This document shows, in pieces, positions 1 to 20,290 of a DNA stretch of 29,823 bases. Position numbers and translations under genes: made by a program. The notes under the pieces are model-generated. The model was not told where the DNA came from. It ran no database searches and saw only the letters and a program-made list of their open reading frames with translations. The stretch comes from a virus (lineage: Duplodnaviria; Caudoviricetes), in IMG/VR virus record IMGVR_UViG_3300031644_001201, positions 1-29,823 of that record. One strand, given 5' to 3'. The number at the start of each line of letters is the position of its first letter. Positions within the stretch are counted from its first letter, which is position 1.

Positions 1-663
1 TCAGAGCCTCCTCACGACTGCGATCACGCGACCAAAGATGTGTAGCTCACCATCGTGCGCCACCTCGGGCGGGACGTTGGGGTTGTCGCTCAATATCTTA
101 ACGCTGCCGTCAGGCATAGGGCGAAGGCGCTTGATCATCCCGGTCTGGCCGTAAGCTATGGCCCAATAGAGATCGCTGAAGTTGGAGCCAATTGCTGAGC
201 GGTCGATCAGGATGACATCACCATCGCCGATCGTGGGCTCCATGGAATTGCCCAAGCCCTTGGCCCAGTAAAGCCGATCAGGCGGGCTGCGGGTGATGGA
301 GCGGAGCCAATCGCGCGGAAACAGCATGGTATCGACTTCATGCTCGACAATCTCGCTGTCCATGAAGGCTGCGCCAAGGCCGAAGTTGAGATCAATCGCG
401 GCAATTTCGACCATCTCGGGCGCAGGTTGTTCGAAGCTGGCGAGCGCGGCGGCCCCGGCGCGGGTCCAACCCGGGAACTTGGGAAAGGCACCCTGCAGCT
501 TCTCAATGGTGCGCTGGCTTAGACGAGTATCCACGATGCCCTTCACGGGCTTCCGCAGGGTCTCAGGGTCTACTTTTGCGCGCTTGGCGACTTCGGTCAG
601 GCTTACCCCGGCGTATTGGACCAGCGCTGTTATCAGCGCGGCGTCTTTCTCTACCCCTGACAT
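1..663 (-). CDS. CI/LexA-type phage repressor (N-terminal HTH + S24 peptidase)
   Basis: HTH SLTEVAKRAKVDPETLRK; S24 motifs GNSMEP (Ser) and IKRL (Lys), ILSDNP, IFGRV; divergent from a Cro-like gene. Confidence 0.92.
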   Translation of the reverse strand: MSGVEKDAALITALVQYAGVSLTEVAKRAKVDPETLRKPVKGIVDTRLSQRTIEKLQGAFPKFPGWTRAGAAALASFEQPAPEMVEIAAIDLNFGLGAAFMDSEIVEHEVDTMLFPRDWLRSITRSPPDRLYWAKGLGNSMEPTIGDGDVILIDRSAIGSNFSDLYWAIAYGQTGMIKRLRPMPDGSVKILSDNPNVPPEVAHDGELHIFGRVIAVVRRL

Positions 664-686
664 GGTGTGGCGCTAGCAAATAAAAT

Positions 687-749
687 TCCGAACACGTATC
701 CGAGATTTCTCCGTTTACAGCACGAGATTTCTCCGATATTCGTTCGGAC
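687..749. promoter_or_regulatory. Immunity region: divergent promoters and candidate operators
   Basis: CGAGATTTCTCCG at 701-713 and 723-735; TCCGAAC (687-693)/GTTCGGA (742-748) inverted pair; TTTACA (714-719)-17 nt-TATTCG (737-742) just ahead of ATG 750. Confidence 0.7.
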
Positions 750-1001
750 ATGGACCAGCAAACAATCGTTCAGGACATTGCCCGGCGCGCCAAGGCGTCT
801 CGCGTGTCCATCGCCGGGCTCTGCCGCCGTGCAGGTATCCACCCAGACACCTTCCACAACTGGAAGAAGACGGCGCGGAACCCCAATCCGCCGGGAGCGA
901 ACCTGCATTCGGTCGGGGCGCTCTATCGCGAGCTCGACAAGATCGACGCCGAGGATGCCAAGCGGCTGGCCCGGCGCGGTGGCAAGGCGGTGGCGGCATG
1001 A
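750..1001 (+). CDS. Cro/Ner-like HTH regulator
   Basis: 83 aa; SIAGLCRRAGIHPDTFHNWK HTH; first gene divergent from repressor. Confidence 0.85.
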   Translation: MDQQTIVQDIARRAKASRVSIAGLCRRAGIHPDTFHNWKKTARNPNPPGANLHSVGALYRELDKIDAEDAKRLARRGGKAVAA

Positions 1002-1273
1002 GCGCGCGCGGTTCATTGCCCCTTCCTCCCGAAGGCAAGGGTCTCGGGCGCTTCGCCAGCGCGGCGCATGCTGCATGGCTGAAGGCAGAAAGTCTGCGCC
1101 TCGCCGCGCTGTTCGGCATCGAGCATAGCGACGCGGTGACGATTGCGCGGCACTTCCGCGCGTATCCCGATCAGCGGCGGTCGGACGACCTCACCAAGCA
1201 CTGTGCGCTGACCTTGCGCGCTCGCAAGCGGTTCATGTCGCCCAGCAGCGGCAAGGCGGTGGCGGTATGAGCG
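981..1273 (+). repeat. 24-nt direct repeat GGCAAGGCGGTGGCGG(C/T)ATGAGCG at 981-1004 and 1250-1273
   Basis: 23/24 identical; each copy spans a stop/start (ATGA) junction. Confidence 0.85.
998..1270 (+). CDS. Hypothetical early protein
   Basis: ATGA-coupled to both neighbours. Confidence 0.65.
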   Translation: MSARGSLPLPPEGKGLGRFASAAHAAWLKAESLRLAALFGIEHSDAVTIARHFRAYPDQRRSDDLTKHCALTLRARKRFMSPSSGKAVAV

Positions 1274-1776
1274 GCGGCGGCTTCTTCGATAGGGCGCGGG
1301 CCAAGGCTGCGGCGTCTGGTGCAAGGGGTGGCTCCGAGCGTTTGCGACTGGCGCGGCTGAACGCTGCCGACCGTCCTGCGGACGCCGGTTTCGCGTCGAT
1401 AGCGGCAGCGCAGTTGGTGATCCGCAGGCTGAAGCTGCGGGCGGCATTAAACGATGCGCGCAAGTCAATCGAAGCACTGCTCGACAGCCTCGACCAGCAG
1501 ACGCAGGCGGATCGCGACGCGGTCTCTGCGTTGTTTGATCAAGCTGGGAATCTGATCCCGGACGCCGCTGAGTGTGTGCAGGGTAACCGCTCGGTCAATC
1601 CCATCGGTGGCGATGATGTGCGAGAGAAGGAGTTGCTGGAGGGCGTAAACCTGATCCTGCAGCTCCTCGATACGCTCGGCGTCGGTCTTCGGCATGGGCT
1701 GTTCTCCTCCAGTGAGAGGGCAAGGTCTAACCGGCCCGAAAGTGCCGCGCATCGTCTAAGTGGGGGTGTGGAATGA
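1267..1776 (+). CDS. Hypothetical early protein (overlaps an antisense ORF)
   Basis: ATGA-coupled at both ends; 3' part may be shaped by the antisense gene. Confidence 0.45.
   Translation: MSGGGFFDRARAKAAASGARGGSERLRLARLNAADRPADAGFASIAAAQLVIRRLKLRAALNDARKSIEALLDSLDQQTQADRDAVSALFDQAGNLIPDAAECVQGNRSVNPIGGDDVREKELLEGVNLILQLLDTLGVGLRHGLFSSSERARSNRPESAAHRLSGGVE
1465..1695 (-). CDS. Antisense small helical protein (76 aa, MPKTDAERIEELQDQVYALQQLLLSHII...)
   Basis: Strong RBS GGAGGAGA upstream of ATG 1695 on minus strand; natural amphipathic composition. Confidence 0.6.
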   Translation of the reverse strand: MPKTDAERIEELQDQVYALQQLLLSHIIATDGIDRAVTLHTLSGVRDQIPSLIKQRRDRVAIRLRLLVEAVEQCFD

Positions 1777-2798
1777 ACGCTCGTTCCAAGGGGCGCGCGG
1801 TGCGCGCCGACGCCCGCGTGATCAGCATCGATCCTGCCGACATCTTCATCCCCGAGCGCATCGGGTTTCTGCATCAGGACAAGGCTGCGGCGCTTGGCCG
1901 GTTGATGGCGGTGGATGGCCAGCGCGATCCGATCAAGGTGGTGCGGGTATTTCCGAGCAAGACGGTGGAGCAGTGCAAGGCCGAAGGCAACCGCCCTTGG
2001 CGTCTGGTGGTGGGTATGCACCGGCTGCAAGGTTGCATCCTCGAAGGGATCGAGGTGCTGGCCATTGAGGTCAAGGGCAAGCCCGAGGAGCTGGCCGAGC
2101 TTGAAGCTTCGGAAAACATTGACCGGCGCGATATTGGGCCGCTGGAAAAGGCCAAGTTCGTGGCTGCGATTGCCGATGCAGCGCGGGCGCGGGTGGCGGC
2201 GGAGCATGGCGAAGACCTGAGCAACCAGCAGCTGGCCATCAGGGCGCGCTGGGCGCGGGCAAATGACCCTTCGGCAGGCCTTCAGGGGCTGGAAAGGGCC
2301 ATCGAAGAGGAGACCGATGATACGTGTTCACAAAGTGAACGCGTATATGGGTGGCAGCAATCGGTTCGAGATGCATTCGGGCTTGGCCGCACTCAGACAT
2401 GGCAGTTCATTAAGCTCTACCGGATGCTGGTTCAGCCGTTCCCGGCGCTTGCCGAGCCGCTGGCCAAGCACCCGGTGGTGGGCGCAAACCTGACCCAGTT
2501 ACTCAAGATCGCCAGCCAACAGGATGAAGGCATTCGCGGCCGGGTGATTGAGGCGCTGATCGGCGACAACACGCTCACCGCTGACGCTGCGATCCTGCAA
2601 TTCGGCCAAACTGCACGAAGCGCGCCGCAGCGCGAAATGTACGCGCACGAGAAGCAATGGAGCGCGGTCCACAACAACTGGAAGAACATGGGCCTCACCC
2701 ACAAGCGCCAGTATCTGCCGAAACTTCTTTCGATGCTGACGCCCGATCTTAAGCGCGAGGCGCGCGATCTCCTTAACGAGGAGCTGGGCGATGCGTGA
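1773..2798 (+). CDS. ParB N-terminal domain protein with central HTH
   Basis: GQRDPIKV, WRLVVGMHRL, EASENIDRRDIGPLEKA resemble ParB/Srx motifs; HTH-like VRDAFGLGRTQTWQFIK. Confidence 0.85.
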   Translation: MNARSKGRAVRADARVISIDPADIFIPERIGFLHQDKAAALGRLMAVDGQRDPIKVVRVFPSKTVEQCKAEGNRPWRLVVGMHRLQGCILEGIEVLAIEVKGKPEELAELEASENIDRRDIGPLEKAKFVAAIADAARARVAAEHGEDLSNQQLAIRARWARANDPSAGLQGLERAIEEETDDTCSQSERVYGWQQSVRDAFGLGRTQTWQFIKLYRMLVQPFPALAEPLAKHPVVGANLTQLLKIASQQDEGIRGRVIEALIGDNTLTADAAILQFGQTARSAPQREMYAHEKQWSAVHNNWKNMGLTHKRQYLPKLLSMLTPDLKREARDLLNEELGDA

Positions 2799-3093
2799 AA
2801 GCAGAACGCAGCGTGCCGCCATAGTCATTGGTCGGGCCTCGGAGGAGCACAAAGAAAAGGCGCTGCGCCGGTGGCTAGCAGTCATCGAGACACAGATGCT
2901 TCAGGCCATGGGCCATACCGCCTGTTCCGCTGTGGTCGAAGTCGCTGTCCGACATGGAGTGTCTTCCAGTGCGATCTGGAGATGGCGCAGATTGGTTTAC
3001 GGCGAATACGAGCCGGTCCCCCAGCTTCGTTGCCTGCTCGACCAACGCGCAATCCGCAATTCCGAAATCCTGTCGCTTGAGGCGGTGCTGTGA
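2791..3093 (+). CDS. Stand-alone MuA I-beta-like HTH DNA-binding protein
   Basis: Gapless alignment to the transposase segment at 5680-5832, 18/51 identical by hand; RBS GAGGAG upstream. Confidence 0.7.
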   Translation: MRESRTQRAAIVIGRASEEHKEKALRRWLAVIETQMLQAMGHTACSAVVEVAVRHGVSSSAIWRWRRLVYGEYEPVPQLRCLLDQRAIRNSEILSLEAVL

Positions 3094-3230
3094 AGCCGCC
3101 GCTGCCCAGCGAGGCCGCGATTGCGCGCGAGATGAAGGAGACCGGGCTCGACCGGTTCCCGGCGATCCGCCGCATCCAGCAGCGCCGTGCGCTGACCGAA
3201 CAGCTTGAGAAGGGGAGGCTCTCCAAGTGA
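3090..3230 (+). CDS. Small hypothetical protein (46 aa; not in ORF track)
   Basis: GTG start overlapping upstream TGA; stop overlaps next GTG; MKPPLPSEAAIAREMKETGLDRFPAIRRIQQRRALTEQLEKGRLSK. Confidence 0.6.
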   Translation: MKPPLPSEAAIAREMKETGLDRFPAIRRIQQRRALTEQLEKGRLSK

Positions 3231-3724
3231 CGATGCTTGCGCCAAGGGAGCAGCAATTGCTGCGCTTCATCATCGGTTTTCAGGCCGCGCATGGGTTTGC
3301 CCCAAGCTACATCGAAATGGCGGATGGCATCGGCTTTTCCAGCACCGGCGATCTGGCCCGCTTGCTCGATAAGCTTGAAGACGAAGGCCATATCCGCCGC
3401 CTGTTCAGGCGCGCCCGTTCGGTTGAGGTGCTGGCCAGGCTGCCGATCCCGCAGGCACCGGACGGGTCGCCGCTTTATCTGGTGCCGGGTGTTCCCAAGG
3501 CGCTTCGTCTCACTCCCATGCAGAAAGCCGCTCTGGCTTTCATAACTGCATACCACCGCGATTTCGGCGTCAGGCCGACGCTGGATCAGATAGCCGACGG
3601 CGCGAAGCTCCGTTCGCATCAGGCAGCGTTCGCGATTGTGTGCCGCCTGCAGGAGCTCGGGCTGATCAAGACGCGCGAAGGCGGCAAGCGCGTGCTGAAG
3701 CCCGCAATCGAGGAGATCGTGTGA
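3227..3724 (+). CDS. Protein with two tandem LexA-type winged-helix DNA-binding domains, no peptidase
   Basis: LAPREQQLLRFI...GFAPSYIEMA...LEDEGHIRR...ARSVEVL and LTPMQKAALAFI...GVRPTLDQIA...LQELGLIK; RBS GGAGG 3214-3218. Confidence 0.85.
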   Translation: MTMLAPREQQLLRFIIGFQAAHGFAPSYIEMADGIGFSSTGDLARLLDKLEDEGHIRRLFRRARSVEVLARLPIPQAPDGSPLYLVPGVPKALRLTPMQKAALAFITAYHRDFGVRPTLDQIADGAKLRSHQAAFAIVCRLQELGLIKTREGGKRVLKPAIEEIV

Positions 3725-3975
3725 TGCCCCGGTTTGCGAGCAAGGCCGAGTATTTCCGCCACCACCGCAAGGTGATGGAGCTGGCGATGGAGCTGGGCGT
3801 CACCCCGATCGAGGCCGAGGCGCGCATGAAGGCGGTCGCGGCGCGGGAGCGCCACCGGGCCAAGATGGCGCGGCGCGGCCTGCGTTCGGCGCTGCCGCCG
3901 CTGAGCCTGCGCCCCGAAGCGCCGCAGCCGGTGAGCTTCGACCAATTCGATGCCCGCTGGATGATGAGGGACTGA
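3724..3975 (+). CDS. Hypothetical protein
   Basis: ATG overlapping upstream TGA, RBS GAGGAG; MPRFASKAEYFRHHRK... Confidence 0.75.
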   Translation: MPRFASKAEYFRHHRKVMELAMELGVTPIEAEARMKAVAARERHRAKMARRGLRSALPPLSLRPEAPQPVSFDQFDARWMMRD

Positions 3976-3978
3976 GCG

Positions 3979-4329
3979 ATGGGTGCTGCCAAGCCTTGCC
4001 TCGGCTATCCGAGCCGCACCGCCGCCGTGATTGGCCTGCGCCAGCAGGGGCTCAGCACGCGGCAAATTGCCGAAAGCATCGGCATCGAGCCGAAGACAGT
4101 TCTGGCGCTTGAGGTGGGCGCATCGCGGCCCAAGCGCGAGCGGAGCGATTACGAATATCTTGGCCGCGCGGTGCTTGTGCCGACCGATGTGCTTGATGCG
4201 CTGGGGCCTCATGCCGCCAAGCGCGGAATCTCGGTGAACGGCCTTGCCCGCCTGATCATCAGCACAGTGGTCGATGAGGGCATGATCGACGCGGTGCTCG
4301 ATGACGACGCCGAATGGGGGCGCGCATGA
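3979..4329 (+). CDS. HTH + ribbon-helix-helix-like DNA-binding protein
   Basis: LRQQGLSTRQIAESIGIEPKTV (HTH) and VLVPTDVLDALGPHAAKRGISVNGLARLII (RHH-like). Confidence 0.7.
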   Translation: MGAAKPCLGYPSRTAAVIGLRQQGLSTRQIAESIGIEPKTVLALEVGASRPKRERSDYEYLGRAVLVPTDVLDALGPHAAKRGISVNGLARLIISTVVDEGMIDAVLDDDAEWGRA

Positions 4330-4592
4330 GCGAGCTCTTCATCACCCGCCATGCGATCCGCCGCTATCAGGAGCGCGTTGCCAATGTGCCTGCGCCCGAG
4401 GTGTGGCGCGCGCTGGATTGCCGGGCAGTGCAGCTTGCCATCCAGATGGGCGCGCATTTTGTGCGGCTGGCGGGCGGCCAGCGCGCAGTGCTGCGCGAGA
4501 ACCGCGTCGTCACCATCCTGCCCAAGGAAACGCACGAAAGCGCGCTCGATCCGCGGCGCGATCCCCTGTTCGAAGATGGGGGTGAGGCATGA
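4326..4592 (+). CDS. Hypothetical phage protein
   Basis: ATGA-coupled; ITRHAIRRYQERV...VVTIL pattern common in small phage proteins. Confidence 0.75.
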   Translation: MSELFITRHAIRRYQERVANVPAPEVWRALDCRAVQLAIQMGAHFVRLAGGQRAVLRENRVVTILPKETHESALDPRRDPLFEDGGEA

Positions 4593-4858
4593 GCCTCGGC
4601 AAGCTTCGCAAGCGCGAATTCAACATCACCAGCGAGCTGCTCGCCGATCTCGCCCGGATTTTCGATGCCAACCCCGGCGAAGGAACGCCGCGCGTCATTG
4701 GCTACTACGATCGGGCGGGCGCACTTCGCCGCATCGTCGCCACATATCCGAATGGCTGGACGGTGACCGGCAACGTGAACGCCAGAGGCTACGTCACCAG
4801 CACGCGGTTTCGCTGCACCTTCAAAGCGATGGTGAGGGAGATCAATGCCCAAGGCTAA
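4589..4858 (+). CDS. Hypothetical protein
   Basis: ATGA-coupled, RBS GAGG. Confidence 0.65.
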   Translation: MSLGKLRKREFNITSELLADLARIFDANPGEGTPRVIGYYDRAGALRRIVATYPNGWTVTGNVNARGYVTSTRFRCTFKAMVREINAQG

Positions 4859-5306
4859 GCCTCATCCCGGCCAGCTCGGCTTTGACTTCGCGGCTCCCGC
4901 GCCTGCCAAGGGCGTGGCCGAGCTGGCGGGGCTTGAGCGGCAGATCAATGCTCTCGTCGGCACGGTGCTGGCGAGCGATCCGCGCCCGCGTGAGGTTATC
5001 GCTGCGGAGATGAGCGTGCTGCTCGACGATCATGTCAGCCGCGCGATGCTCGATGCCTATTCTTCGCCAGCGCGAACCGATCACAAGGTTCCGGCCTCGC
5101 GCCTGCTTGCGCTGCTGGTGGTGACCGATCGGCAGGATCTGCTCGATCCGATCATGCGCAAGATCGGCGCGGCGCTGCTGGTCGGCGAGGAAGTGAAAAC
5201 CGCGCGGCTCGGCCACCTGCAGCAGCTGATCCAGGCGGCGCAGGCCGAGATGAAGTCGCTGAGGGCCGATGCCCCGCAAATCAGAGAAGGTGGTGAGGAT
5301 GTCTGA
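4845..5306 (+). CDS. Hypothetical protein upstream of transposase (probable DNA-binding)
   Basis: RBS GGGAG; REVIAAEMS...VSRAMLDAYSSPAR HTH-like segment; overlaps MuA start. Confidence 0.75.
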   Translation: MPKAKPHPGQLGFDFAAPAPAKGVAELAGLERQINALVGTVLASDPRPREVIAAEMSVLLDDHVSRAMLDAYSSPARTDHKVPASRLLALLVVTDRQDLLDPIMRKIGAALLVGEEVKTARLGHLQQLIQAAQAEMKSLRADAPQIREGGEDV

Positions 5307-7299
5307 GTTTTTGCGCCCTATCGCTCCGCTACTTGAGGGCAGTGGTGCGCGCATCAACGAGGTGCCGTTCGAGCAGGACGCCTGGTTCACCGCCAGCGAG
5401 CTCGAAGACCTCGGCCTGCCCGGCCTGCCCGGCGACAAGCGTTCGATCAACCGGCGCGCCCAGACCGAGCGCTGGACATCGCGGCTCGGCCCGGATGGCC
5501 AGCTGCTGGTCCGCAAGCGCTGCGGGCGCGGCGGTGGGGTGGAATTCCACGCCAGCCTGCTGCCCGGCGAAGCGCGCATCGAACTGGCGCGGCGCGGCCT
5601 GATCCGCACCCGGCCCGAACCGGCCAGCAATGGCCTCGCCAGCGCCTGGGCGTGGTTCGACAAGCAGCCCAAGAAGGTGAAGGCCGAGGCGCAGCGGCGG
5701 CTCGACATCATCACCGCCATTGCGCTGCTGTGCGAGGCGGGATCAACCCGCACCTCGGCGATCGCGCAGGCCTGCGATGATCACGGCATCAGCCGCGCCA
5801 CGATCTGGAACTGGCTGCGCGCCGTTGAAGGGATCGAGCGCAGCGATTGGCTGGTCGCGCTCGCCCCGCGTCGGCAGGGCGGCGGTTGTGTCGCCGAAAT
5901 CCACCCCGAGCTGTGGCAGATTTTCCGCAGCGATTTCCTGCGCCCCGCCGCGCCGACGCTGACGAGCTGTTATTACCGCGTCGTCAATATCGCCCGCGAA
6001 AGAGGCCTGAAAGTGGCTTCTGAGCGCACCTTCAGAAGGCGGCTGGAGCGCGAGGTTCCCGCCGAAGTCATCCGCCTGAAGCGCGAGGGCGAGGAAGCCC
6101 TGCGCCGTTCGATCCCCGCCCAGCGCCGCAGCGTGGCCGAGCTTCACGCGCTCGAATGGGTGAACATCGACGGGCACAAGTTCGATGTTTTCGTACAACT
6201 GCCCGATGGCCGGGTGATCCGCCCGATCCTTGTGGCGATTCAGGATATCTACAGCCGCAAATTCGTCGGCTGGCGGCTGGGCGGTGAGGAAAGCGCGATC
6301 CAGACCCGGCTCGCCTTCGCCGATGTGTTCCGGAACTTCGGAATCCCGGCGCATTGCACGCTCGACAATGGCCGGGCGTTCGCATCCAAGTGGATCACCG
6401 GCGGCGCGAAAAGCCGGTTCCGCTTCAAGATCAGCCCTGAAGAACCGACCGGCCTGCTGACCGGGCTTGGCGTTCGCATCCACTGGGCGCTGCCGTTTCG
6501 CGGCCAGTCCAAGCCGATCGAGCGGGGTTTCCGCGATCTGTGCGAAAGCATTGCCAAGCACCCGGCCTGCGAAGGTGCCTATACCGGCAACAACCCGCAG
6601 GCCAAGCCCGAGAATTACGGATCGAAGGCGGTTGCCTGGGATCGGTTTGTCGCGCTGGTGGATGAAGGCATCGCGCTGCACAACGCGCAGCCCGGCCGCC
6701 GCACCGAAATGGCGCAGGGCCGCAGCTTTGATGATGTGTTCGCCGAAAGCTATGCCGCTGCCCCCATCGGTAAGGCCACGCCCGAACAGCTGCGCATGGC
6801 GCTGCTGGCGGCAGAGAACCGCCTGATCAACCGCCAGACCGGCGAGATCGAGCTGCACGGCAACCGTTACTGGCACCCCGAGCTTTCGGCCCAGCGCGGC
6901 GAGCGGGTGACGGTGCGCTTCGATCCCGACAATCTGCATTCCGAGATCCACGTCTATGATCTGGAAGGCCGGTACATCACCGCCGCCGATCTGATCGCCG
7001 ACACCGGCTTTGGCGATGCTGCCGGGGCCAAGGAAGCGGCCAGACGCGTGGCCGATTATCGCAAGCGCGCCAAGGCCATGGCCGAGGCCGAAGATCTGCT
7101 TTCCGCCGAACAGATCGCCGATCTGCAGGCGGGCGCACGCCCCGCGCCGACACCCAGCGCCGGGATTGTTCGCCCGGTGCGCCACGCCGCCCACCAGGCG
7201 CGCCAGAACACCCCGAAAACAGAAGCGGCCAGCGCTGATGTGCTGCCGATCGACCGGATGCGGCTTGGCCTCGCCAAGTTCGCCGCTGGCCAGAATTAA
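5299..7299 (+). CDS. Mu-like transposase A (DDE)
   Basis: Mu-type N-terminal DNA-binding domain (WFTASEL...LPGLP...RGGGVEFH), HTH domains, catalytic IDGH / LDNGRAF / SKPIERGF, C-terminal VRFDPDNL; ATG 5299 preferred over 5269. Confidence 0.95.
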   Translation: MSEFLRPIAPLLEGSGARINEVPFEQDAWFTASELEDLGLPGLPGDKRSINRRAQTERWTSRLGPDGQLLVRKRCGRGGGVEFHASLLPGEARIELARRGLIRTRPEPASNGLASAWAWFDKQPKKVKAEAQRRLDIITAIALLCEAGSTRTSAIAQACDDHGISRATIWNWLRAVEGIERSDWLVALAPRRQGGGCVAEIHPELWQIFRSDFLRPAAPTLTSCYYRVVNIARERGLKVASERTFRRRLEREVPAEVIRLKREGEEALRRSIPAQRRSVAELHALEWVNIDGHKFDVFVQLPDGRVIRPILVAIQDIYSRKFVGWRLGGEESAIQTRLAFADVFRNFGIPAHCTLDNGRAFASKWITGGAKSRFRFKISPEEPTGLLTGLGVRIHWALPFRGQSKPIERGFRDLCESIAKHPACEGAYTGNNPQAKPENYGSKAVAWDRFVALVDEGIALHNAQPGRRTEMAQGRSFDDVFAESYAAAPIGKATPEQLRMALLAAENRLINRQTGEIELHGNRYWHPELSAQRGERVTVRFDPDNLHSEIHVYDLEGRYITAADLIADTGFGDAAGAKEAARRVADYRKRAKAMAEAEDLLSAEQIADLQAGARPAPTPSAGIVRPVRHAAHQARQNTPKTEAASADVLPIDRMRLGLAKFAAGQN

Positions 7300-7316: not shown

Positions 7317-8285
7317 ATGATCAACGTCACCCACCTGCCGGTCGATGTCGAAGAAGTCCGGATGTGGCTCGTCGGCTATCGCAATATGGCCGATCCGCCC
7401 ATCCCCTGGAGCCAGCTGGCCAAGGAAACCGAGATCCCGGCAGGCACGCTCCAGCCCTTTTCGGCGGGAACCTATCAGGGCAACAACGAGAAGATCGCGC
7501 GCAAGCTGTTCATGTTCCGCCAGTCGGTGGAGCAGCAGGCAGTGCGGCAAAAGACGCTGCCGACCAATCCCGGCTTCTTCCGGACCGATACCTCGCAGCG
7601 CCTGCAGATGCTGCTGGAAGTGGCGCACATGGGGCGCATCACGGTGGGCGCGACCGGCCCCGGCACCGGCAAGACGATGACCGTGCGCGAATATGCTGAG
7701 CGCGCGCAGCCGGTGTGGATCGCCACCATGAAGCCGAGCTGCGCCAAGCTCAACGCCATGATCATGGAGGTGCACCGCGCGCTGGGGCTTGAGCCGCGCA
7801 AGCTCACTTCGGCAGAAGCCTCGCGCATCGTGCTCGAACGGGTGCGCCAGCGGCGCGGCCTGCTGGTGATCGACGAGGCGAATTATCTCACCATCGAAAG
7901 CATCGAGGAGATCCGCAGCTGGCACGATGATACCGGCGTTGGCATCTGCCTGCTGGGCAACGAGGAACTGCTCGCCCGGATCGAGACCGGGCGGCACCGC
8001 GATCAGTTCGCCCGCCTCAATCGCCGGATCGCGATGCGGCACACCCAGCGCGTGCCGCTGCCGGGCGATGTGCGCGCGTTTTGCGATGCCTGGGGGATCA
8101 CCCAGCCCGATATCCGCCACTTCCTTGATACCATCGCACGCACGCCCGATTCAGGGGGCTTGGGCGAATGCCAGCAGCTGATCGAAAGCGGATCGATGCT
8201 GGCCGCCGCCGATGATCGCGGCCTGTCGCTGGCCGATCTGCGCGAGGCGCAGATGTATCGCGCGACGAAGTGGATCAAGGCATGA
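7317..8285 (+). CDS. Mu-like transposition protein B (AAA+ ATPase)
   Basis: Walker A GPGTGKT, Walker B LLVIDEA, GICLLGN; RBS AGGAGG; directly after MuA. Confidence 0.95.
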   Translation: MINVTHLPVDVEEVRMWLVGYRNMADPPIPWSQLAKETEIPAGTLQPFSAGTYQGNNEKIARKLFMFRQSVEQQAVRQKTLPTNPGFFRTDTSQRLQMLLEVAHMGRITVGATGPGTGKTMTVREYAERAQPVWIATMKPSCAKLNAMIMEVHRALGLEPRKLTSAEASRIVLERVRQRRGLLVIDEANYLTIESIEEIRSWHDDTGVGICLLGNEELLARIETGRHRDQFARLNRRIAMRHTQRVPLPGDVRAFCDAWGITQPDIRHFLDTIARTPDSGGLGECQQLIESGSMLAAADDRGLSLADLREAQMYRATKWIKA

Positions 8286-15653: not shown

Positions 15654-17920
15654 ACTTCTTCACCAAGGCGCTTGCCCGCCTCACCAGTTCGCTCACCCAG
15701 ATGCGGCACGGCGCGCAGTCGCTGATGCTGGGCGGGCTGCTGCGCCGCACCCGGTTCGATTATCGCGGCGCGGTGGGCGATATGCTCGATGCCTCGGTGG
15801 TGACAGCGCCGGTCGGCTGGGTGCAGCGCGCGCTGCCCGAGGCCAATCTTGCCATGCGCGCCAAACTGGCCAGCGGCAAGGTTGACGAGATCGAGGATCA
15901 CCCGCTGCTCGATCTCATCCGCAATCCCAATCCGTTCTACAGCGATATCGCGCTGTGGGGCGCGACCGCGATGATGATGCTGCTCCATGGCAACGCCTAT
16001 TGGCTCAAGGTGCGCAGCGCCTCGGGCCGGGTGGTCGAGCTGTGGTTTGCGCCGAGCTGGATGGTCGAGCCCAAGCCTGCCAGCGATGGTTCGGCCTTCA
16101 TCGATCACTATGTCTACACGCCGGGCACCGGGTCTGGCCGCTATTACGTCCAGCCCGAGGACGTGATCCATTTCCGCAACGGGCTCAATCCGCGCGCGCC
16201 CTATCTCGGCCTGTCGCCGATGGATGGGGTGATCCGCGAGATCTTCGCCGACATGGAAAGCAGCAATTTCGTCGCCAGCCTGCTGCGCAACATGGGCGTG
16301 CCCGGCGTGGTGATCAGCCCCAAGACGGGCGGCATGGCCAGCCCCGATGATGTCGAGGCGACCAAGACCTGGTTCAAGCAGGCGTTCGGCGGCGATAACC
16401 GCGGGCAGCCGATGGTGATGGGCGCGCCGACCGAGGTGCAGCCCTTCGGCTTCAACCCGCAGCAGATGAACCTGACCGAGGCGCGCGATGTCGCCGAGGA
16501 GCGCGTCTGCGCTGCGATCGGGATCCCGGCCGCAGTCGTCGGCTTTGGCGCTGGCTTGCAGCAGACCAAGGTCGGCGCGACGATGGCGGAGCTGCGCAAG
16601 CTTGCCTGGCACAACGGCGTGCTGCCTCTGGCGCGCGCGATGGCGGACGAATTGCAGCGCAGCCTGCTGCCCGATTTCGAGCGCGGCAATCGCCGCATCG
16701 AGCTTTACTGGGATACCTCCGATGTGCTCGCCCTGCAGGAGGATGAGAACAAGGCGACCGAGCGCAAGCTCAAGGAACTGACTGCAGGCGCGATCACGCT
16801 TTACGATTATCTGGTCGAAACCGGGCGCGAGGCGGATGACAGCCACCGCTATTACCTGCGGCCCTTCTCGGTGATCGAAGTGCCGCTGGAGCTGGCCGGG
16901 CAAGGCGCGATGCGGCAAGTGGCGGCTCCGGCTGCGGCTCCGGCTGCGGATCCGGCGATCGAGCCGGAAAAGCGCCGCGCCCTGCCTGCGCCCAACCAGA
17001 AGTTGTACGATGAAATCGTACAACTGCCTGCGCCCGAGGTGAAGAATGGCGGCACCCCGCCCGAGGTTTCCGGTCGGCCTAACGCTTCGCTGCATGAGGC
17101 CAAGAACTCCGAAGACTGGCTGCCCGATGATGCCCGCGCCGCCAGCGCCGACGCGATCGCGCGCGGCGAGCAGTTCGTCACCATGCTCCAGCGGCAGGAA
17201 CGCGGCCTTCGCACCGGCTTTGAAAACGCGCTGCGCCCGGCGTTCGAAAGCTGGGGCGATCTGGCGGGGCGGATCGCGCGCGATGTGCTGATCGCTGGCG
17301 GGTTCAAGCAGGATGCGCGCGGGATCGAGACCAAGCAGGAAAGCAGCCTCATCCAGCAGATCATCGACCTGCTCAACCTTGAGGCGTGGGAACAGCAGCT
17401 CTCCAGCATCTATCAGGGCCAATATCTGCGGATCGCGCGCGAGGTGGCCAGCGCGGTCGAGGAATCGGGCTTCGGCACTTCGATCCCCGATCCGGTGATG
17501 CGCCAGATCATCGCCACCGGCGGCACGCGCGCCGGACTGGTCGATGTGCCGGGCCAGACCCGCGCCGCGCTGTTCGAGGCGCTGGCCGAAGGGCGAGCCG
17601 AAGGTGAAGGCGCGCAGGCGCTGGCCAACCGGATCGCCAACATGATCGAGGGCGGCCCCTGGGGCAATGCCGATACCCGCGCCCGCGTGATCGCCCGCAC
17701 CGAAACCAAGCACGCGCAGAACATCTCCACCATCGAGGCCGGGCGCGCCAACGGGGTGACCGAATTCGTGGTGTTCGATGGCCGCTTCGGCGAGCCGCGT
17801 TCCGAGCTCAGCCACATCGCGCGCGACGGCATGATCGTGTCGGCCGAGGATGCTTACACCATGGCCGCGAACATGCGGCCCAACTGCACCCTCAGCTTCG
17901 CGCCGAATTTCAGCCTTTAG
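15650..17920 (+). CDS. HK97-type portal protein fused to a Mu gpF/SPP1 gp7-like head morphogenesis domain
   Basis: HPLLDLI..PNP, LLHGNAY, EDVIHFR, YLGLSP, ERVCAAIGIP (portal); Ala/Pro linker; RARVIARTET and RPNCT (gpF-like); RBS AAGGAG. Confidence 0.85.
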   Translation: MNFFTKALARLTSSLTQMRHGAQSLMLGGLLRRTRFDYRGAVGDMLDASVVTAPVGWVQRALPEANLAMRAKLASGKVDEIEDHPLLDLIRNPNPFYSDIALWGATAMMMLLHGNAYWLKVRSASGRVVELWFAPSWMVEPKPASDGSAFIDHYVYTPGTGSGRYYVQPEDVIHFRNGLNPRAPYLGLSPMDGVIREIFADMESSNFVASLLRNMGVPGVVISPKTGGMASPDDVEATKTWFKQAFGGDNRGQPMVMGAPTEVQPFGFNPQQMNLTEARDVAEERVCAAIGIPAAVVGFGAGLQQTKVGATMAELRKLAWHNGVLPLARAMADELQRSLLPDFERGNRRIELYWDTSDVLALQEDENKATERKLKELTAGAITLYDYLVETGREADDSHRYYLRPFSVIEVPLELAGQGAMRQVAAPAAAPAADPAIEPEKRRALPAPNQKLYDEIVQLPAPEVKNGGTPPEVSGRPNASLHEAKNSEDWLPDDARAASADAIARGEQFVTMLQRQERGLRTGFENALRPAFESWGDLAGRIARDVLIAGGFKQDARGIETKQESSLIQQIIDLLNLEAWEQQLSSIYQGQYLRIAREVASAVEESGFGTSIPDPVMRQIIATGGTRAGLVDVPGQTRAALFEALAEGRAEGEGAQALANRIANMIEGGPWGNADTRARVIARTETKHAQNISTIEAGRANGVTEFVVFDGRFGEPRSELSHIARDGMIVSAEDAYTMAANMRPNCTLSFAPNFSL
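16982..17035. repeat. Perfect 11-bp inverted repeat flanked by a 12-bp direct repeat
   Basis: AGTTGTACGAT-GAA-ATCGTACAACT (17001-17025); CTGCCTGCGCCC at 16982-16993 and 17024-17035. Confidence 0.9.
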
Positions 17921-17930
17921 GAGTAGTCCG

Positions 17931-18626
17931 ATGCAGACCAAGAACCTGACCGTCAAAGAAATGGGCGAAAGCGGCAAGGGCCTCGCTATCCTCGCCCGCC
18001 TGTCCGAGATCGATCACGATGGCGACACCTACGAGAAGGGCGCCTTCAGCTGGAAGGGCGACCAGTGGTGCCCATTGCTGCCCGCGCATGATCGCTGGAA
18101 GATGCCTTTCGGCAAGGCCCGGGTCTATGAAGAGGGCGACATCGCCTATGCCGAGCTGCATCTCAACCTTGAGACCCGCGCCGGGGCTGACTGGCACAAG
18201 GCGCTGCTGTTCGATCTCGCGACCGGCCAGGCTGTGCAGGAGTACTCTTATGGCTTCGATGTGCTGGATGCGGACTATAAGATCGAGCCGGACAAGCGCA
18301 CCCGGGTTCTCAAGAAGCTCGACGTGCACGAGGTCTCCACCGTAGTTCGGGGCGCTGGGCGCAGCACCGGCACGGTGAACATGAAGGCGCTCAAGGAAGC
18401 TGGCTTCGCCCCGCTGATCGCCGGACTTGGCGAGCTGGCCGATGCGCTGGACGGCGATCCGGCTGCGCTTTCGGCGACCGGGCGCAAGCAGCTGGAGGAG
18501 ATCCACGCCGCGCTGGGCAAGGCTCTGGTCGATCCGGCGCAAGCCGAGGCTGACGCCAAGGCGCTGATCGAGGAGCAGATGGCGCGGCACCTGACCCGCG
18601 ATGCGCGGCTGCGCTTTGGCGGCTGA
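17931..18626 (+). CDS. HK97-family prohead protease
   Basis: D.DGD.YEKGAF, LLPAHD (His), YSYGF (Ser), HEVSTV; RBS AGGAG. Confidence 0.88.
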   Translation: MQTKNLTVKEMGESGKGLAILARLSEIDHDGDTYEKGAFSWKGDQWCPLLPAHDRWKMPFGKARVYEEGDIAYAELHLNLETRAGADWHKALLFDLATGQAVQEYSYGFDVLDADYKIEPDKRTRVLKKLDVHEVSTVVRGAGRSTGTVNMKALKEAGFAPLIAGLGELADALDGDPAALSATGRKQLEEIHAALGKALVDPAQAEADAKALIEEQMARHLTRDARLRFGG

Positions 18627-18750
18627 AAAGACACCCGCCAGAAACCCGCCAGAAAGCCTCAGGATTGCGTGAAGGCCCTCTGCCCGCCAAATTTCGGGCG
18701 AGGGCCTTCTTAGACCCTCTTAAATCGCCGCTGAGGGGCTTTTCATGCTG

Positions 18751-18789
18751 GCCCGCCAACCGGCATCTGCCGTGGCGGGCTTTCCTTTT
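18751..18789 (+). terminator. Rho-independent terminator after protease gene
   Basis: GCCCGCCA..CGGCA-TC-TGCCG-TGGCGGGC stem followed by TTTCCTTTT. Confidence 0.65.
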
Positions 18790-18848
18790 GCCTTGATGGC
18801 TCATCCGCGCTAATCATGGCGCATCCCGATACATCGCCATTTCCAATG

Positions 18849-18871
18849 CAGCCGGACATCTGTCCGGGGCG
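18849..18871 (+). promoter_or_regulatory. Candidate late-activator site CAGCCGGACA-TC-TGTCCGGGGCG upstream of capsid gene
   Basis: Second copy of the 10546-10568 palindrome. Confidence 0.7.
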
Positions 18872-18958
18872 AAGCGCTGCGCCCGATCCTCCACAACCGG
18901 CTTCGAGTTTCGAACCGGCCTTCGCCCCAGGCGGGGCCGCCAAGTGGAGATGACGGAT

Positions 18959-20290
18959 ATGCCGATCACGAATATGACCCTGGAGCAAGCCCAGGAAAGC
19001 ATGCAGGCGAAGTCTGCAGAGCTGAACACCCTGATGAAGGAAGCCGTCCGCGATGACGGCACCTATGACTTCGCCGGGGTGAAGTCGGTCAAGGACATCA
19101 AGAACAATTCTGACCTGGTGAAGGCGATCCGCGATCGCAACGCCGAGCTCGATGAGCTGGGCGAGTTCATCCAGGGCCAGCGCGAGATGAAGCAGGCCGT
19201 GCGCGATCAGGAAGTGCGCGAAAAGGGCCTGCGCGGTTTCCCGCTGCCGGGCGCTGGTGACGGCAATGGCGGCGGCGGCCTGCCTGCCAACATTGGCCAG
19301 TTCAAGTCGCTCGGTAAGCAGCTGGTCGAGGCGAAGGGTTTCAAGGAATGGCACGGCGGCTCGCGCGGTCCGGCCCTCGATCTGAGCTTCGACGATATGC
19401 TCGGCTCGGATTTCCTCGCCAAGGCGGCGCAGTTTGACACGATGGGCCGCAAGGCGCTGATGAGCACGACTGCGGGCTTTGCCCCTGAAAGCATCCGCCT
19501 GCCCGGCTTTGTCGAAGCGCCGACCCGGCCGATCCAACTGCTTGACATCCTGCCGATGGGCCGGGTGACGCAGGCGGCTGTGCCTTTCATGGAAGAAACC
19601 ACCCGCACCCATGCCGCGGCCGAAGTGGCGGAAGGCGGCACCTTTGCTGAAAGCACCTTTGCCTTCACCCAGCGTTCGACGCCGGTGGTTAAGATCGGTG
19701 ACAGCCTGCCGGTGACCGACGAGCAGCTCGAAGACGTTGCGCTGATCGAAAGCTACGTCAACGGCCGCCTCGCCTTCGGTGTGCGCCAGCGGCTCGACCA
19801 GCAGTGCATGATCGGCAACGGCACTGCGCCCAATCTGCGCGGCATCCTCAACACCGCCGGCATCCAGACTGCGGCGCGGGGCGCGAACCCGGTGATGGAT
19901 GCGATCTACATCGCGATCATCAACATCATGCTGACCGGCCGCGCCCAGGCGACCCACATCGTGATGCACCCGCGCGATTTCCAGCGTGTGCGCCTGACCC
20001 GGACTGCCGATGGCATCTACATCTACGGCTCGCCGCTTGAGGCTGGCCCGTCGCGGCTGTGGGGCCTGCCCGTGGTGCTCAACGATGTGCTGGCCGAAGG
20101 CACCGCGCTGATCGGCGCGTTCGAGCCGACCTTCATCACCCTGTTCGAACGGCGCGGCATCGACATTCAGGTCGGTTACGTCGCCAACCAGTTCATCCAG
20201 GGCGTCCGCACCATGCGCGCCGACATGCGCGCCGCGCTGGCGGTGTTCCGCCCGGCGGCGTTCCACACGGTCACCGACCTCGACGCCTAG
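18959..20290 (+). CDS. Major capsid protein, HK97 family, with N-terminal coiled (delta-like) domain
   Basis: AAEVAEGG, VTDEQLED, IGNGTAPNLRGIL, IVMHPRDF, RLWGLPVV, FRPAAF; start could also be 18944 or 18950. Confidence 0.93.
   Translation: MPITNMTLEQAQESMQAKSAELNTLMKEAVRDDGTYDFAGVKSVKDIKNNSDLVKAIRDRNAELDELGEFIQGQREMKQAVRDQEVREKGLRGFPLPGAGDGNGGGGLPANIGQFKSLGKQLVEAKGFKEWHGGSRGPALDLSFDDMLGSDFLAKAAQFDTMGRKALMSTTAGFAPESIRLPGFVEAPTRPIQLLDILPMGRVTQAAVPFMEETTRTHAAAEVAEGGTFAESTFAFTQRSTPVVKIGDSLPVTDEQLEDVALIESYVNGRLAFGVRQRLDQQCMIGNGTAPNLRGILNTAGIQTAARGANPVMDAIYIAIINIMLTGRAQATHIVMHPRDFQRVRLTRTADGIYIYGSPLEAGPSRLWGLPVVLNDVLAEGTALIGAFEPTFITLFERRGIDIQVGYVANQFIQGVRTMRADMRAALAVFRPAAFHTVTDLDA

Follow-up and report, generated by a model that had tools for sequence, protein, structure and literature searches.

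The stretch analyzed here, referred to in the following as the window, is the entire 29,823-nt IMG/VR record IMGVR_UViG_3300031644_001201. It derives from a Mu-like transposable phage, with genes for a repressor, a ner-like protein, a ParB-like protein, orfX, small proteins, MuA, MuB and GemA in that order (Table 1). The record begins at the repressor stop codon and includes neither phage end. The nearest relatives of its MuA come from Erythrobacter, Porphyrobacter, Citromicrobium, Sphingobium and Novosphingobium genomes, so that, judging by sequence, the host is likely a sphingomonad. The sequencing runs with window DNA were marine and salt-lake metagenomes; no RNA runs were among those listed. 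The head genes at 17850–20290 (prohead protease and major capsid protein, judged from the ORFs) look HK97-like rather than Mu-type.

Table 1. Features of the early region and transposition genes of the window.
Feature	Position	Strand	Remark
CI-type (S24 peptidase) repressor	1..663	-	From domain/profile searches; MuA I-alpha homology absent
Candidate early promoter (promoter-like site before ner-like gene)	657..686	+	1 found vs 0.6 expected by chance: weak
ParB-like gene	1773..2798	+	Directly followed by orfX
Ribosome-binding site of orfX, within the end of the parB-like gene	2778..2783	+	GAGGAG
orfX (P0001), stand-alone MuA I-beta domain protein, 100 aa	2791..3093	+	
I-beta fold, orfX residues 1–86, counterpart of MuA 84–168	2791..3048	+	Structure comparison of model
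Predicted recognition helix, orfX residues 58–66	2962..2988	+	W63 and W65 family-invariant, R64 family-typical
3' boundary block common to slot genes (last 12–13 codons of orfX)	3054..3093	+	Outside the domain
MuA transposase, full-length	5299..7299	+	I-beta at about 5641–5877
MuB ATPase	7317..8285	+	

The start of orfX overlaps the stop of the parB-like gene by 8 nt and its end overlaps the next start by 4 nt; with the ribosome-binding site, these overlaps bear out the original prediction that the gene is coupled. From 750 to 7299, all genes overlap or lie no more than 3 nt apart, and no sigma-70-type promoter was found in 600–5400 beyond the candidate in Table 1. Because this chain runs unbroken behind the candidate promoter, orfX is likely made together with MuA after induction or infection, from a presumptive early operon, and not by the quiet prophage.

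Several other features of the early region were observed. A 13-nt near-palindrome occurs twice at 700–735, between the repressor and ner-like genes, likely as repressor operators. The protein encoded at 3227–3724 consists of two tandem LexA-type DNA-binding domains with no protease domain; its relatives are often two separate genes, or have just one of the LexA-type domains. On the minus strand, an ORF of about 76 aa (1695–1465) lies antiparallel within the early chain, overlapping the plus-strand ORF at 1267–1776. It recurs in many relatives at 34–57% identity and is a candidate lysogen-expressed gene, so the transcription map may be more complex.

Domain identity of the orfX protein

Residues 21–71 of orfX aligned without gaps to residues 128–178 of the phage's own MuA (DNA 5680–5832), with 18 of 51 positions identical (35%), exactly as originally predicted. 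The pair had a BLASTP E-value of 3e-7 and a Smith–Waterman score of 83, which none of 2000 shuffles attained (mean 34, maximum 62). At the DNA level, no similarity between orfX and its own muA was found (best E 0.07). Residues 115–178 of the own MuA align to positions 15–78 of the 4FCY chain, which is the I-beta part; Mu numbering corresponds to the chain position plus 76, the construct comprising residues 77–605 (PMC3562280). I-beta itself spans MuA residues 77–168 and binds the phage ends jointly with I-gamma, as described in PMC3362531.

The AlphaFold model of orfX, made from an 11-row alignment, had a pLDDT of 87, exceeding 90 for residues 11–80. Its top match among 48,161 PDB chains was MuA I-beta (MuA 88–165) with a Z-score of 12.0 and an rmsd of 1.5 Å, against 7.2 for the first non-MuA fold; according to the warning of the structure-comparison tool, Z-scores below about 13 can be common among helical bundles. 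The NMR structure of isolated I-beta gave Z 10.0 over residues 1–86, and across the I-beta structures (2EZK/2EZL and 4FCY) 78–85 residues aligned with an rmsd of 1.5–2.2 Å. The likeness thus extends past the 51-residue stretch, with model residues 1–86 matching MuA 84–168. The best four rows in Foldseek were all MuA, with E-values of just 8e-3 to 6e-2, and for the Atlas model of the homologue P0005, MuA clusters ranked first (TM 0.73–0.78). By sequence, the sole PHROG match of orfX was an N-terminal MuA family; a PDB sequence search gave no hits.

A profile built from 53 MuA I-beta rows alone matched all 17 family members (see below) with E-values of 1e-21 to 4e-12, and the reverse profile, built from the family, matched the I-beta domain of every full MuA among the loci. 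The I-alpha profile matched none of the 17, nor did the I-gamma profile (best E 0.045 in the 17-sequence set; 0.31 for orfX). The 100-aa ORF ends at 3093 without a match to DDE_2 or to the catalytic profile. Model and sequence comparisons confirm that orfX corresponds to a whole MuA I-beta domain, with the predicted five-helix fold and helix-turn-helix (HTH) of MuA residues 77–168, and lacks I-alpha, I-gamma and the catalytic part. The original prediction had described an intact, non-catalytic I-beta relative rather than a generic HTH protein, and this is what we found; its term "mini-MuA" does not apply, as orfX is a single subdomain.

Compared with MuA, orfX is a separate gene that lacks the I-alpha, I-gamma, catalytic and C-terminal domains, and most of the linker is lost; compared with I-beta, it has the same whole fold and keeps the HTH core and recognition helix, while the helix-1 aromatic motif is lost in the 17 core members and the family is more basic. 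Weak profile matches to IS66 TnpA and HTH_Tnp_1 covered the HTH only (26–36 residues, E 4e-4 to 6e-6) and fell below the curated cut-offs, at 20.4 bits versus 74 and 20.9 versus 24.1. The TnpE structure matched the model with Z 6.8, compared to 12.0 for MuA, and orfX has no IS context. A generic HTH or IS66/IS3 protein was excluded by these sub-threshold scores and by the drop in Z from 12.0 to 7.2.

Family, genomic position and origin

Protein searches yielded 16 stand-alone proteins of 79–116 aa, after two repeat-rich sequences (P0010 and P0012) had been removed as chance matches and P0008 replaced with its longer cluster mate P0019; the loci contributed P0032 (from L041) and the copies in L091 and L119, resulting in 19 members that are 21–89% identical. 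The survey of stand-alone copies suggested by the original prediction thus produced a family. Gene context was available for six members: those of the window, L002/L066, L041, L091, L118 (P0011) and L119. In all six, the stand-alone I-beta gene comes first after a parB-like gene, overlapping or abutting its stop codon, in a sphingomonad Mu-like phage with muA 2–3 kb downstream (partly readable in L118).

The gene is accessory. It was present in 6 of 34 distinct parB–muA intervals, a sample enriched by the searches, and its absence from the other 28 shows that it is dispensable; in the unenriched retrievals, 1 of 3, 0 of 22 and 1 of 17 loci had it. Genus searches, which scored only 12–23 candidates per genome, found one stand-alone copy in 19 matches (212 genomes) and three in 29 matches (301 genomes). 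A class-wide sample of 401 genomes gave 11 matches, comprising ten long frames, one shadow frame and no stand-alone copy, and when loci were scanned directly, with orfX, with P0013 or with alignment A1 as the query, only the L002 phage was retrieved. No longer fused forms were found among 7995 candidates, which is weak evidence, as full MuAs were missed too.

What follows parB behaves as a swappable cassette, in most relatives a methyltransferase gene or unrelated short ORFs; in L002, L118 and L119 the I-beta gene stands between parB and a methyltransferase gene. Contigs from three sequencing runs, among the matches listed, diverge from the window at 2793–2803 and rejoin it at 3054. The boundary block at the end of orfX is common to methyltransferase and other slot genes, and it was poorly modeled. 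These 40 nt close whichever gene occupies the slot in 16 loci, and since the changes within them are mostly synonymous, either the peptide or the ribosome site of the next gene may be under selection.

In one contig (run X16, among the matches listed), orfX differed by 10 synonymous and 6 non-synonymous changes, the six amino acid changes being identical to those of the cluster member P0017. The dN/dS ratio for this single pair was 0.18 (p 0.0015), and 0.10 in codons 15–82, from which orfX appears to be under purifying selection. The parB-like tail of the same contig gave 0.026, showing that selection on orfX is weaker.

In a tree of 90 columns, the 17 core members formed one branch (99/88), while all 19 together reached just 65/88. 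Grouping orfX with its own MuA was rejected by the AU test (p 0.002). A recent duplication of the own muA was ruled out by this result and by the missing DNA-level similarity. The original prediction of a paralogue of the transposase domain therefore stands as regards kinship to MuA I-beta, but orfX is a long-standing member of its family, as opposed to a recent copy. At its end, the copy in L119 retains part of the catalytic domain, with 30 of 37 nt identical to its own muA; across the recognition helix the two agree at 18 of 19 nt. This copy can be placed equally well with the family or with the clade of its own MuA. Since it keeps a catalytic-domain piece, we infer that the genes arose when the interior of a muA copy was deleted, an event that may have recurred. 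Two Novosphingobium copies retain MuA-like N-termini, one of them with the cognate helix. In three Roseobacter-group phages the transposase directly follows parB; an origin from such parB-coupled transposases was favored by the first tree, but not by the larger tree or the profile scores, and the AU test did not reject it (p 0.47). Decayed muA pieces, such as that in L123, look different, having no start codon and no parB context.

Recognition helix, phage ends and possible function

In MuA, R146 sets the end specificity. The residue at this position is W in all 19 members and in 49 of 75 MuAs, and the residue after it is R in 13 of 19 members versus 1 of 75 MuAs; this R and a family-specific R-W-L-L stretch could reflect a new target or partner. 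The mean net charge was +5.2 for the 19 members and +1.2 for 80 MuA I-beta domains (p 3e-10, with related rows that are not independent), orfX being the least basic member (+3). Positions matching MuA 93–97 and 159–160 have diverged in the 17 core members, which have also lost the helix-1 aromatic motif. In MuA, the contact of I-beta with II-alpha of the neighboring subunit includes residues 97 and 160 (PMC5961161). With the recognition helix kept and these interface residues diverged, the side facing the DNA seems to have been retained and the assembly side given up. Co-variation of the family helix with that of the cognate MuA was not found: 37 of 75 MuAs are more like orfX over the domain than its own MuA is, and L119 and L091 are the only members for which the cognate MuA helix is not surpassed by another.

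As the window contains no phage end, candidate sites were taken from relatives, in which left ends were located where homology begins at a TG. The first left-end site reads TG-N6-GACA-N7-YTRGA(G/C)T and recurs further in. Its distal half, presumably the I-beta half by analogy with Mu, fits 18 of 21 left ends, of which 17 had been found with a pattern favoring the motif and 4 with a weight matrix, two loci being too short. All four carriers of the stand-alone gene with a readable left end have it, and the MuA helices differ widely across loci that share it. Within the window the half-site occurs once, versus 5.45 times expected, so no internal operator of this type was seen. By sequence, the left-end architecture of sphingomonad Mu-like phages is conserved: at L028 1963–2190 and in 20 other loci, the terminal TG is followed by one site, a spacer of about 100 bp with an A-tract, and further sites.

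The reading we favor, though tentatively, is that orfX acts as a competitive damper of transpososome assembly at the phage ends; it builds on the fold, family, position, selection and absence of other MuA domains, to which it adds a proposed expression from the early operon, DNA binding, target and sign of the effect. Likely produced alongside MuA early in lytic growth, orfX would probably bind one half of the MuA sites. A single HTH without I-gamma should bind weakly, and the bound protein would slow assembly as a low-affinity competitor, occupying sites without being built into the complex because I-gamma and the catalytic domain are missing and the subunit interface has diverged. With a candidate half-site common to these phages, such an end-binder would not discriminate between the ends of its own phage and those of relatives in the same cell; tuning transposition and hindering a rival, the two roles originally envisaged, would be one activity and not two. 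Against a damper count the weak binding expected of one HTH, the family-specific R and R-W-L-L stretch, the missing co-variation of the helices, the low charge of orfX within its family, the 28 of 34 intervals without the gene and the weaker selection relative to the parB tail.

Some of these points would suit a DNA-binding regulator repurposed for a new target, such as a promoter of the phage or of its host, where orfX might work as a dimer or together with the ParB-like protein. This is possible, if doubtful: the family-specific residues within and after the recognition helix, the lack of co-variation, the constant adjacency to parB, the other small regulators in the operon and the I-beta-like domain fused to a Bro-N-type protein in L122 all agree with it. 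It fits less well with the W that is common to most sphingomonad MuAs and invariant in the family, the lack of enrichment of the end-type half-site inside the phage, and the two Novosphingobium copies with MuA-like N-termini and, in one, the cognate helix. The scar in L119, the Roseobacter-group transposases after parB and the freely swapped slot content would also be expected if orfX were the relic of a deleted second muA, kept as a harmless translatable spacer that couples parB to the next gene. We consider this improbable, given the single well-supported branch of 17 divergent members with the whole fold intact, dN/dS ratios of 0.10–0.18, the raised net charge and the different appearance of decayed muA pieces.

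The same fold and operon evidence could also describe a positive helper that sits on the ends or outer sites and assists in pairing the ends, protecting them or starting packaging. Co-expression with MuA in lytic growth would suit such a role, and PMC3820752 contains the proposal that the Mu repressor helps pair prophage ends; with no oligomerization domain evident, diverged interface residues and most relatives without the gene, a helper nevertheless seems quite improbable. Finally, a prophage-expressed immunity factor against incoming transposable phages could exploit the common half-site for cross-blocking, in a phage whose own repressor differs from the end-binding Mu type. This is very improbable, since orfX sits in a predicted lytic early operon, embedded among overlapping genes downstream of a candidate repressed promoter and with no internal sigma-70-type promoter found.

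The proposed damper resembles known inhibitors without belonging to them. The Mu repressor c (Rep) corresponds to the N-terminal I-alpha domain of MuA, and orfX, like Rep, is a phage protein without a catalytic part that shares homology with one of the DNA-binding domains of MuA. Unlike Rep, it matches I-beta, and no family member matched the I-alpha-type winged HTH; Rep is made in the lysogen from a divergent gene, whereas orfX lies, by position, in the rightward early chain of a phage with a CI/S24 repressor. For Rep, PMC3820752 gives an affinity for the ends below that of MuA, and titles in its reference list point to inhibition of transposition. As in the second group of inhibitors, an end-binding part of a transposase without catalysis would, in orfX, act as a brake. 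IS1 InsA, the IS3-family OrfA and the P-element KP repressor have such an inhibitory role. They are frameshift or deletion products of the very gene that encodes the transposase, with a sequence identical to it (for OrfA, a frameshift product, see PMC3219604), whereas orfX is a separate, long-diverged gene 2.2 kb upstream of muA (AU p 0.002). By analogy, orfX is best read as acting at ends as the Mu repressor or the IS-type fragments do, while being a member of neither group.

No description of a stand-alone I-beta protein, or of a dedicated, separately encoded end-binding domain that controls Mu-type transposition, was found in the literature searched, most subscription papers lying outside its scope. 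If orfX binds the ends, it would be a small, testable transpososome inhibitor, a handle on how cross-talk between phages with common end sites is avoided or put to use, and a natural example of a regulator derived from part of an enzyme, with the deletion scar retained in L119. The common end consensus makes such binding directly testable. A broader reading, rather unlikely in our view, is that in sphingomonad Mu-like phages the transposase is a recurrent source of single end-binding domains, which the phages keep as broad-range end blockers at the shared half-site, a phage–phage interference aimed at transposition; I-beta would have been carved at least once, perhaps two or three times, and I-gamma once.

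Other arrangements of MuA end-binding domains were seen among the loci. In a Sphingopyxis prophage, L040 5425–5937 (same in L019) encodes a stand-alone I-gamma joined to a C-terminal portion of unrelated sequence; this gene belongs to the early region, and an intact muA lies downstream of it. L070 11185–10586 (minus strand) encodes a 199-aa protein with I-beta and I-gamma only; it has no Mu genes nearby and sits in an ICE-like region by DGQHR-type and queuosine-pathway-like genes, labels that were judged from sequence. At L122 7240–6542 (minus strand), a protein whose N-terminal part we take to be Bro-N-like is fused to an I-beta-like C-terminal domain; its gene lies behind a Mu-type left end, a repressor and a ner-like gene in a small Mu-derived element.
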